NCBI GenBank assembly: GCA_000004695.1
Contig: CM000150.2
Span: 1,824,001-1,888,000, forward strand
Reading direction: 5' to 3'
Source: Dictyostelium discoideum
Taxonomy: Eukaryota
DNA: 64,000 bases
In this document: piece by piece, positions 47,671 through 49,354 of the stretch
Position numbering within the stretch: position 1 is the first letter of the stretch
Layout of the letters: each line of letters starts with the position of its first letter
Position numbers and translations under genes: made by a program
The notes under the pieces: generated by a model
Seen by the model: only the letters and a program-made list of their open reading frames with translations
What the model was told of the DNA's origin: nothing
Databases searched by the model: none

Positions 47671-48332
47671 ATTTTTTTTTGTGTAGGTGATAATAAAAAA
47701 AAAAAAAAAAAAAAAAAAAATTAAAAAACAATACAATAATATATCCAATTATATACAATTATATATACAATGGTTTTATTTGTTGTGTTGAATTTTTAAA
47801 ATAAAAAATAAAAAAATTTTCAAATACGAATCAAAATTTGGGTTTTAAAAAAAAGAAAATTCAAAAAAAAAAAAAAAAAATCAAAAAAAATTAAATTAAA
47901 AATCCGATTAAGTACGATTTAAAATAAAAAAAAAAAAAATAAATAATAAAATGAAATAATATAAAAAAAAATAATAAAATAAAATTATAAAAAAGAAAAA
48001 ATTTGTATCATTTATTTTAAAATAAAAGAATAAAAAAAATTAATTTAAAACTTTACTTTTTTTTTTTTTTATTACTAAAATAAATGGACAATTTAAAAAA
48101 AAAAAAAAAAATAAAAAAAATTTTAAAAAATGGAAAAATTTTGATTTGTCGTCCCCAAAAAAAAATCAAAGAGAAAAAGAAAAAAAAATAAAAAAAAAAA
48201 AAATTTGGTTATTTTTTTTTATTTTTTTTTTTTTTATATAAATAGATATTTTCAATTGTGTTTATAAAAAAAGAGTTAAAATGAGTTTAGGGACATTAGT
48301 TTTAAAAAAAAAAAACGTAGGTAAAATTGGTG

Positions 48333-48690
48333 GATTTAATGACTGAAGGAAATGAATTACCATATTAACTAAACAGAATGAACTAAATGTTTTCTCTGCT
48401 GCATTATTTAAATCTTTTGAGATTGCCCACCATTTTACTAATAATGCTAAATCTATACATCTATTATCAATTGAACAATATTCACCTAACAATAATGAAT
48501 TGTGATAACTAATCATTGAATTAAAACACATATCGAAATGAATACCTGATGATATCTCTTTGAATCTAATGATTGGTATTTTTGCATCCATTCTTTTTTC
48601 AATTAATTTATATTGTTGAGATCTATTTAAGTATTTATAAACTTGTTTTAAATAAGTTGTATCTTCCTTTTGAATACATGAAAATATATC
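48333..48690 (-). pseudogene. Pseudogene fragment. It is a partial copy of the nucleotidyltransferase/PAP-associated region of copies 2 and 3 (KQVYKYLNRSQ.YKLIEKR..AKIPIIRFKEISSGIHFDMCFNSM.SYHNSLLLGEYCSIDNRCIDLALLVKWWAISKDLNNAAEKTFSSFCLVNMVIHFLQSLNPPILP). Homology ends abruptly at both ends.
   Basis: The nucleotide and protein sequence is near-identical to 49853..50215 of copy 2. Homology breaks at 48332. Downstream the ORF runs into unrelated sequence (…TFFFFKTNVPKLILTLFL*). Confidence 0.8.
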
Positions 48691-48840
48691 ACCAGATTGT
48701 CATCGTATATCTCTTTTTGATAAAACACTAGCACAAAGAAAAGAAATTCTTAAGAATGCAAATATTGTTTTCTCAACATTATCAGCAAGTGGTTCTGGTC
48801 CTGTTAGAAGTAACTTTAAAGCAAATATTGTACATGCACA
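48691..48840 (+). pseudogene. Pseudogene fragment in INVERTED (plus) orientation. It is a partial copy of the helicase motif Ia-II region (CHRISLFDKTPAQRKEILRNANIVFSTLSASGSGPVRSNFKANIV). It abuts the NTase fragment.
   Basis: The plus-strand translation matches the minus-strand-encoded copy 2/3 sequence CHRISPYDKTPAQRKEIIRNANIVFSTLSASGSGSVRSNFKANIV. The junction with the NTase fragment at ~48690 is direct. Confidence 0.75.
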
Positions 48841-49354
48841 AGTACAAGTTTAACAGGTTCATCAGATTTAACAGGTTTAACTGGTACAGGTAAAGGTTTT
48901 TACAGGTTTAGCAGATTCAGGTAAAGGTTGTCAGGAAGATTATAAATCTACCTATGCACTATGACATTAGGAGTGGTTTAATATTTTTTAATACTTAGAC
49001 AATAATAACAATAAAAAAACAAAAAAAAATTTTATTTTTATTTCTTAAAAAAGTAAACAAAATAAATAAAATAGAAATTTTGCCTATTGCAATAGTAAAG
49101 ATACAATTTTTAAAAATTTAAAATCGAAGTCATAATTTAATAAATAAAAATAAAAATAAAATTATTTGTTTTTTTAAATAATTCCCATGGAATTTAGATT
49201 TTGCCTTAAGAAATCTATCCGTAAATATTTTTACAAGATTAAAAAAAAAAAAAAAATTCAAATTTACTTGTCCTTTTATTTATTTTAATTTAAACAAAAA
49301 AAAAAAAAAAATGGTTTGGGTATTATTTTTTAATTTTTTTTTTTTTGTAAAACT

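Follow-up and report, generated by a model that had tools for sequence, protein, structure and literature searches.

A lineage-specific pseudogene mosaic in a helicase-nucleotidyltransferase gene array of Dictyostelium discoideum

Complex rearrangements of the fork stalling and template switching (FoSTeS) or microhomology-mediated break-induced replication (MMBIR) type, and templated insertions at repaired breaks, are known from the human and yeast literature. In the duplicated (unprocessed) pseudogene fragments of tandem arrays, pieces of a neighbouring paralogue lie between genes, have lost essential motifs and drift approximately neutrally. Here, we describe a block of about 0.97 kb in Dictyostelium discoideum that shares features with both. 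It lies in a window of 64,000 nucleotides (NCBI GenBank assembly GCA_000004695.1, contig CM000150.2, positions 1,824,001 to 1,888,000 of the forward strand; positions below count from the first letter of this window), within an array of three minus-strand paralogues (copies 1 to 3) that spans 42.3-64 kb of the window. The block occupies the spacer between copy 2, which encodes a helicase with a nucleotidyltransferase (NTase) domain, and copy 1, which encodes the helicase only. As in FoSTeS/MMBIR products, short segments were copied from nearby in mixed orientation, with microhomology at the readable junction and a small deletion of the recipient (inferred from the empty alleles of related genomes); unlike in those systems, the event was read from the sequence alone, after it had happened, and one of five junctions is readable. 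The block also differs from ordinary duplicated pseudogene fragments in that it holds a 152-bp and a 370-bp piece that are not adjacent in the parent gene and of which one is inverted, together with 0.4 kb of orphan DNA. The results show that the block is a real, well-delimited, lineage-specific pseudogene mosaic, left as a scar by an old rearrangement of a familiar type. We consider it probable that this non-functional scar was produced by microhomology-mediated template-switching repair or by partial duplication.

The original prediction had placed three elements between copies 2 and 1, and all three were recovered with slightly shifted limits (Table 1). The first, psi(i), is 94.4% identical to copy 2 (49851-50224) over 374 bp (E=1e-165) and 93.9% identical to copy 3 (57538-57911). 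Both blastn matches are plus/plus, and thus psi(i) has the minus-strand sense of the genes. By tblastn it corresponds to residues 1964-2081 of copy 2, which take in the latter half of the NTase palm domain and the linker that follows (Pfam limits in the copy 2 protein: MTPAP-like palm 1905-2029, PAP_assoc 2134-2196). It begins after the G-S/DxD motif, so the catalytic residues are missing, and ends before PAP_assoc; of the NTase/PAP-associated region that had been predicted here, only the NTase part is therefore present. The parental frame of psi(i) is open for 143 codons, and the piece retains an open reading frame (ORF) of 109 amino acids that begins with ATG.

Table 1. Features of the mosaic and of the surrounding gene array, in window positions.
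Feature	Position	Strand	Basis or content
Whole block (~0.97 kb)	48296-49278	.	In window and L004; not in orthologous spacer of L003/L005/L006
psi(i), NTase fragment	48320-48690	-	blastn, tblastn, alignment and translation, Pfam limits
psi(i)/psi(ii) head-to-head junction	48681-48690	.	Alignment ends; homologies overlap over AAAATATATC
psi(ii), helicase fragment, inverted	48681-48832	+	blastn, four-way alignment and translation
Tract iii, degenerate tandem repeat	48833-48960	.	Tandem Repeats Finder, repeat search, GC
Orphan AT-rich spacer, 16% GC	48961-49240	.	Not in L003, L005, L006
Common 3' flank of copies 2/3	49241-49352	-	96% identity to 56925-57036
Copy 1	42297-47540 plus 26-nt first exon, ATG 47669	-	Upf1-like helicase only, without NTase (Pfam)
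Copy 2	49355-56092 plus 26-nt exon 1 near 56417	-	Helicase, Cid1/TUTase-type NTase and PAP_assoc (Pfam)
Copy 3	57042 to past 63992	-	Domain content as copy 2 (Pfam)

The second element, psi(ii), matches all three genes in plus/minus orientation, which bears out the prediction of an inverted fragment from the helicase motif Ia-II region. Its identity is 91.4% over 152 bp to copy 2 (51849-51698; E=1e-57), 88.8% to copy 3 (59566-59415) and 72.5% to copy 1 (43598-43446). It corresponds to copy-2 residues 1415-1464, in the stretch that separates motif Ia from motif II, and stops one codon short of the latter (LVDESTQ), so that it contains neither motif I nor motif II; the plus-strand frame across it is open and has no start codon. 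The segments from which psi(i) and psi(ii) derive are 1473 bp apart in the parent gene. At the point where the two pieces meet, ATATC (5 nt) within AAAATATATC is exact in both parents and is surrounded by a longer match that is imperfect. Two non-contiguous pieces of one gene type, one inverted and joined at microhomology, agree with the suggestion that this is the scar of an inversion or partial duplication. In addition, both pieces are pseudogenic: each has significant nucleotide homology to a functional parent in the same genome (copy 2), and neither can encode the parental function because of truncation and the loss of essential motifs. Changes specific to the two pieces numbered 5 synonymous and 6 non-synonymous, compared to 2:8 in copy 2 and 4:11 in copy 3; these are small numbers in a fast-evolving family, and with such counts the pattern does not differ from that of the intact copies and no purifying selection is evident. 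As judged by tblastn, the spacer (47541-49354) and the region downstream of copy 1 hold no further remnants of the family.

The third element, tract iii, consists of a 9-nt repeat, ACAGGTTTA, present 4.7 times (48844-48885), and a 31-nt unit present twice (48867-48929). Its GC content of 35.9% exceeds that of the flanking spacer (11-16%) and of the genes (25%), and it has no significant match elsewhere in the window (blastn, tblastx) or in seven related loci (blastn), so the original description of a GC-richer tract unlike anything else in the window was accurate. A phmmer search with its 34-amino-acid open frame against 1.84 billion representatives returned only unrelated repeat proteins and low-complexity matches. 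The AT-rich stretch next to it likewise gave only low-complexity matches in the window and the seven loci. Together the two make up about 410 bp of orphan DNA for which no parent was found. If a parent of 48833-49240 were to lie elsewhere in the genome (such as the 3'-terminal part of a plus-strand gene whose product ends in GKGCQEDYKSTYAL before the stop codon), it would be a third template. The spacer between copies 2 and 1 shares no k-mers with the one between copies 3 and 2.

In order to compare the block with related genomes, the locus was retrieved through the protein cluster of the kinase gene next to copy 1, which has orthologues in seven other assemblies, and five loci from these were compared at the sequence level. 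They include L004 (assembly GCA_054883475.1), L003 and L005 (labelled D. discoideum) and L006 (labelled D. cf. discoideum), the last three on contigs JBTAPG010000034.1, JBTAPF010000019.1 and JBTAPI010000039.1. Judging from the species names, the related assemblies are apparently the ones sequenced with long reads in PMC12745789. L004 is colinear with window positions 39584-51098 at 99.86% identity over 11.5 kb and carries the mosaic at the same place. In contrast to the window and L004, in L003, L005 and L006 the copy-2-type gene and its 3' flank are followed directly by the copy-1 upstream region, and blastn colinearity skips from window position ~49279 to ~48295. The spacer measures 821 bp (L003), 976 bp (L005) and 441 bp (L006) in these genomes and 1685 bp in the window, and tblastn found neither psi(i) nor psi(ii) in the three shorter spacers. 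The distal 38 bp (49241-49278) of the copy-2/3 3' flank are also missing there. The three empty sites carry a common motif of about 60 bp (AAATAAA-CTATA...TTATCCA...TTG-T-run) that is not in the window. In the flanking genes, L003 and L005 differ from the window by ~3% and L006 by ~6%, and a distance tree from three of these genes has the form ((window/L004, (L003, L005)), L006), in which one gain is more parsimonious than two losses. The block is thus most simply regarded as a derived insertion of the lab (AX4/AX2) lineage, in which the ~60-bp ancestral motif was lost, with the polarity resting on parsimony.

The same spacer has an insert of another kind in L006, where about 160 bp of GC-richer sequence (L006:3225-3385) contain repeated CTGAAATTAATA-like motifs and match nothing in the window or the other loci. 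This insert is specific to L006, and so the spacer was independently struck by another insertion.

We next consider the source and age of the pieces. Site patterns are star-like in both: three-way comparison gave 9 sites specific to psi(i), 7 to copy 2 and 9 to copy 3, and the corresponding counts for psi(ii) were 7, 6 and 10. Over 505 bp of the two pieces, psi differs from the L005 gene at 18 sites, from the L003 gene at 24, from copy 2 at 29, from the L006 gene at 31 and from copy 3 at 35; copy 2 and the L005 gene differ at 22. In a neighbour-joining tree of the same 505 bp, copy 3 is the outer branch, and the branching order among copy 2, psi and the L003/L005 genes is not resolved (bootstrap 46-49%). 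The identity of the helicase piece falls from 89-91% with copies 2 and 3 to 72.5% with copy 1, so that its source was of copy-2 type, and on these distances psi is shown to derive from the copy-2 orthology group and not from copy 1. The adjacent paralogue, copy 2, most likely represents the parental lineage. The difference between the block and every possible source is 3.6-6.9%, and the orthologous divergence between the window and L003/L005 is 3.9-4.4%, alike for copy 1 and copy 2. Divergence of this size from all sources, together with the presence of the block in L004, indicates on sequence grounds that the event is old, about as old as the split of the lab lineage from the diverged isolates. 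The notion that the array is still rearranging does not agree with these values or with the identical position of the block in a 99.86%-identical genome. Within the discoideum clade the array structure did change, as shown by the three related genomes that lack the block.

Nor does the fragment support the idea that copy 1 once carried an NTase domain. Besides the low identity of the helicase piece to copy 1, the block lies 0.6-1.6 kb upstream of the copy 1 start (ATG 47669) and not at its 3' end, and no NTase remnant lies downstream of copy 1. That the family ancestor carried the domain is suggested by the kinase-adjacent genes of D. citrinum and D. dimigraforme and not by the psi fragment. 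In these two species (L007:2048-9034 and L008:3818-8823), a single NTase-bearing helicase gene lies beside the DDB_G0268656 orthologue; an NTase-less copy 1 is found in the window and the L003-L006 loci only and in neither L007 nor L008. Comparison of these loci with the arrays of the discoideum clade indicates that array content shifts between close species.

Based on these results, we propose the following origin. In the lab lineage, the copy 2-copy 1 spacer would have lost about 60 bp of ancestral sequence and gained about 0.97 kb, comprising 38 bp of copy-2/3-type 3' flank, ~410 bp of orphan DNA, 152 bp of inverted helicase sequence and 370 bp of directly oriented NTase sequence. A break or a stalled fork was most likely repaired by serial template switching onto the neighbouring paralogue, either by an MMBIR/FoSTeS-type process or by synthesis-dependent end joining, and the outcome would be a complex templated insertion and not a decayed whole gene. 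The pieces would have drifted after the event, with neither able to encode an active domain. Two features expected of template switching are seen here. Two segments were templated nearby with a change of orientation (helicase, 2.9 kb away, inverted; NTase, 1.5 kb away, direct), and the derived state can be set against an intact ancestral site in three empty genomes, which include the outgroup as judged by flanking-gene distances.

Several observations weigh against this origin. Recognisable microhomology is seen at only 1 of 5 junctions, and the rest border sequence for which no parent was found. Compared with copy 2 of the window, the copy-2 orthologues of L003 and L005 are slightly nearer to psi, as would also be expected if the block arose earlier and loss or lineage sorting came after. 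It may likewise be a segregating presence/absence polymorphism, because, according to PMC12745789, macrocysts are formed between D. discoideum AX2 and two of the diverged isolates. In addition, the sequence next to psi(i) is the orthologue of the distal 3' spacer that follows the copy-2-type gene in the other genomes, and a gene remnant left in situ would look alike. Both pieces are still open in the parental frame, and one public annotation takes psi(i) as an exon.

The strongest alternative, which we regard as unlikely, is that the mosaic is the in-situ remnant of a complete third gene of copy-2/3 type, the true orthologue of the gene that lies beside copy 1 in L003, L005 and L006. Such a remnant could have been reduced by several deletions and one small inversion in the lab lineage, or it could be ancestral and later deleted or sorted out elsewhere. 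The genes of L005 and L003 are indeed the nearest to psi and have three derived sites in common with it that copies 2 and 3 do not have, although the bootstrap of the grouping is just 46%. The two pieces keep the order of the gene, helicase upstream of NTase, and psi(i) directly adjoins spacer orthologous to the distal 3' spacer of the other genomes; furthermore, the 3' flank of copy 2 is of copy-3 type and not of L003/L005/L006 type. In contrast, the 1.7-kb spacer contains no other part of a gene and neither a copy-2-type upstream region nor exon 1. Copy 2 is at exactly the orthologous distance (3.9-4.4%) from the L003 and L005 genes and thus already fills the role of the orthologue, and more events are required than in the insertion model. 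The top window match to the 3' flank, at 48181-48241 just downstream of psi(i), scored 66 bits against a background of 57-60 bits, which would suit a remnant. We rejected this segment as a vestigial 3' flank, since it lies 6-9 bits over a low-complexity background and within copy-1 upstream sequence that is orthologous in L003 and L005; the match probably arose by chance in low-complexity sequence.

The origin that we favour remains template-switching repair or partial duplication into the spacer, and the block shows no sign of function. In the spacer, no Rfam match reached its family gathering score, no local inverted repeat beyond A/T runs was found, and scans for tRNAs and for bacterial promoters and terminators gave nothing relevant (the promoter scan is bacterial and does not apply to a eukaryote). 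In the submitter annotation of L004, the copy-1 model (L004:2506-8793, equivalent to window ~48591-42297) takes the ATG of the psi(i) ORF as its start. The sole splice solution that gives the annotated 1847 amino acids joins 92 amino acids of psi(i) to copy-1 exon 2 across a 744-nt intron with the donor GTTTTT, which, to our knowledge, is not a typical Dictyostelium splice donor. This model is probably a prediction artefact or mis-annotation.

Co-option of the block is very improbable in our view, whether psi(i) serves as an alternative first exon of copy 1 (a 92-amino-acid extension) or an antisense helicase read-through RNA feeds RNA interference (RNAi). In the latter version, 152 bp of ~90% identity would pair with copy 2/3 mRNA. 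The retained 109-amino-acid ORF with its 143 open codons and the start of the L004 copy-1 annotation speak for the first version, and for the second the inverted piece lies 0.5 kb past the copy 2 stop codon on the same transcriptional path. However, splicing needs the GTTTTT donor and the L004 model is a gene prediction; by a rough estimate, chance alone would leave a frame open after ~9-11 substitutions in about half of cases; and the few substitutions give no sign of purifying selection. No structured RNA or hairpin was found in the spacer, and the absence of the block from three relatives means that it is not needed for the function of the genes.

The RNAi version recalls the small-RNA loci made of pseudogenes or inverted duplications, such as those of mouse oocyte endo-siRNAs and of the model for the origin of plant miRNAs. 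As at those loci, an inverted part-gene copy lies close by, and double-stranded RNA (dsRNA) with the parent transcript is possible in principle: oriented as antisense in a read-through transcript, the 152-bp arm of psi(ii) shows 91% complementarity with copy 2 mRNA. Unlike at those loci, no local hairpin is present, the two arms are separated by 2.9 kb and pairing would require read-through, and the block is dispensable in relatives. The helicase and NTase domain pair presumably recalls the Hrr1 helicase and the Cid12 NTase of the fission-yeast RNA-directed RNA polymerase complex (RDRC). An exaptation in which psi(i) became a new first exon of copy 1, or in which dsRNA placed the copy 2/3 genes under RNAi specifically in the lab lineage, is just as improbable.

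Finally, a chimeric join of copy 2 and copy 3 reads might be feared in a repetitive array whose pieces are near-identical to neighbouring genes, but 11 psi-specific sites in the four-way comparison (6 after outgroup polarisation) and the same structure in L004, an independent assembly from another genome project, make an assembly artefact, which had been named as a possible refutation of the prediction, next to impossible.

The array itself shows further variation. Copies 2 and 3 are ~90% identical across 6.2 kb, including 112 bp of 3' flank, and copy 1 is ~82% identical to them across 2.9 kb. When 49355-52100 is compared with 57042-59840, copies 2 and 3 differ by 2.85% in the helicase core, where each differs by 3.9-4.9% from the L003/L005 orthologue; in the final 435 bp of the coding sequence, there are 0 unique changes in copy 2 and 14 in copy 3. 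This mosaic of distances suggests gene conversion between the two copies. Their 3' flanks, which resemble each other closely, are unlike the flank in the other genomes. Copies 1 and 2 open with homologous 26-nt first exons (ATGGGTTCTATTTTAAAAACAGAAGA and ATGAGTTCTTCTTTAGAAACAGAAGG), each followed by an GTAAAATATT intron (first-exon regions 47559-47669 and 56290-56417, respectively); in copy 1, the sequence reads as the ATG, a short intron and a long exon from ~47558. Because of these short first exons and introns, mechanically listed long ORFs under-call the 5' ends.

Homologue searches with the C-terminal half of copy 2 returned no close orthologue. The matches were helicase and PAP_assoc fusions of 38% identity from other dictyostelid genera, and a 59%-identical paralogue at a non-syntenic locus. 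This paralogue (L001:6819-11861; D. cf. discoideum, GCA_054859205.1) lies beside an actin cluster and has the NTase (7821-8740) upstream of the mid region and helicase (9131-11588), with an ORF (8057-9928) in which the NTase C-terminus continues into the mid region; its domain order is thus permuted relative to copies 2 and 3 of the window. No record matched exactly when the psi(i) ORF, copy 2, nnt or a 568-amino-acid ORF of the window was looked up, and nothing specific was found in the literature on the gene family, the neighbouring DDB_G identifiers or pseudogene rearrangements in Dictyostelium.

Downstream of copy 1, the minus-strand kinase gene (39917-40900) is, by its protein cluster, the orthologue of AX4 DDB_G0268656, which UniProt describes as a 'probable inactive serine/threonine-protein kinase'. 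Within 39435-39788, a tRNA-Thr(AGT) gene (39435-39506) is present, and immediately after it comes a tandem repeat of about 7 copies of a 42-nt unit, with frames reading MDSHAWILMHGFSC. The window as a whole has 23% GC. Its proteins include the Dictyostelium-specific Pfam domains Dict-STAT-coil and FNIP, and the product of its transhydrogenase ORF shares 99% identity with a protein labelled D. discoideum and 80% with that of D. purpureum; together with the kinase orthology and the near-identity to L004, these features place the window in the lab lineage of D. discoideum.

Taken together, these results carry an annotation caveat, as at least one automated annotation has merged the pseudogene mosaic into the copy-1 model. 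The practical value of the block is modest, and by itself it opens no new biological question. For the organism, it is a dated, lineage-specific, complex structural change in a fast-evolving Dictyostelium array, and with its readable junctions and empty-site alleles it can serve to mark the NC4-derived lineage. For the family, it belongs to a helicase-NTase array in which copy number and domain content vary between close relatives.

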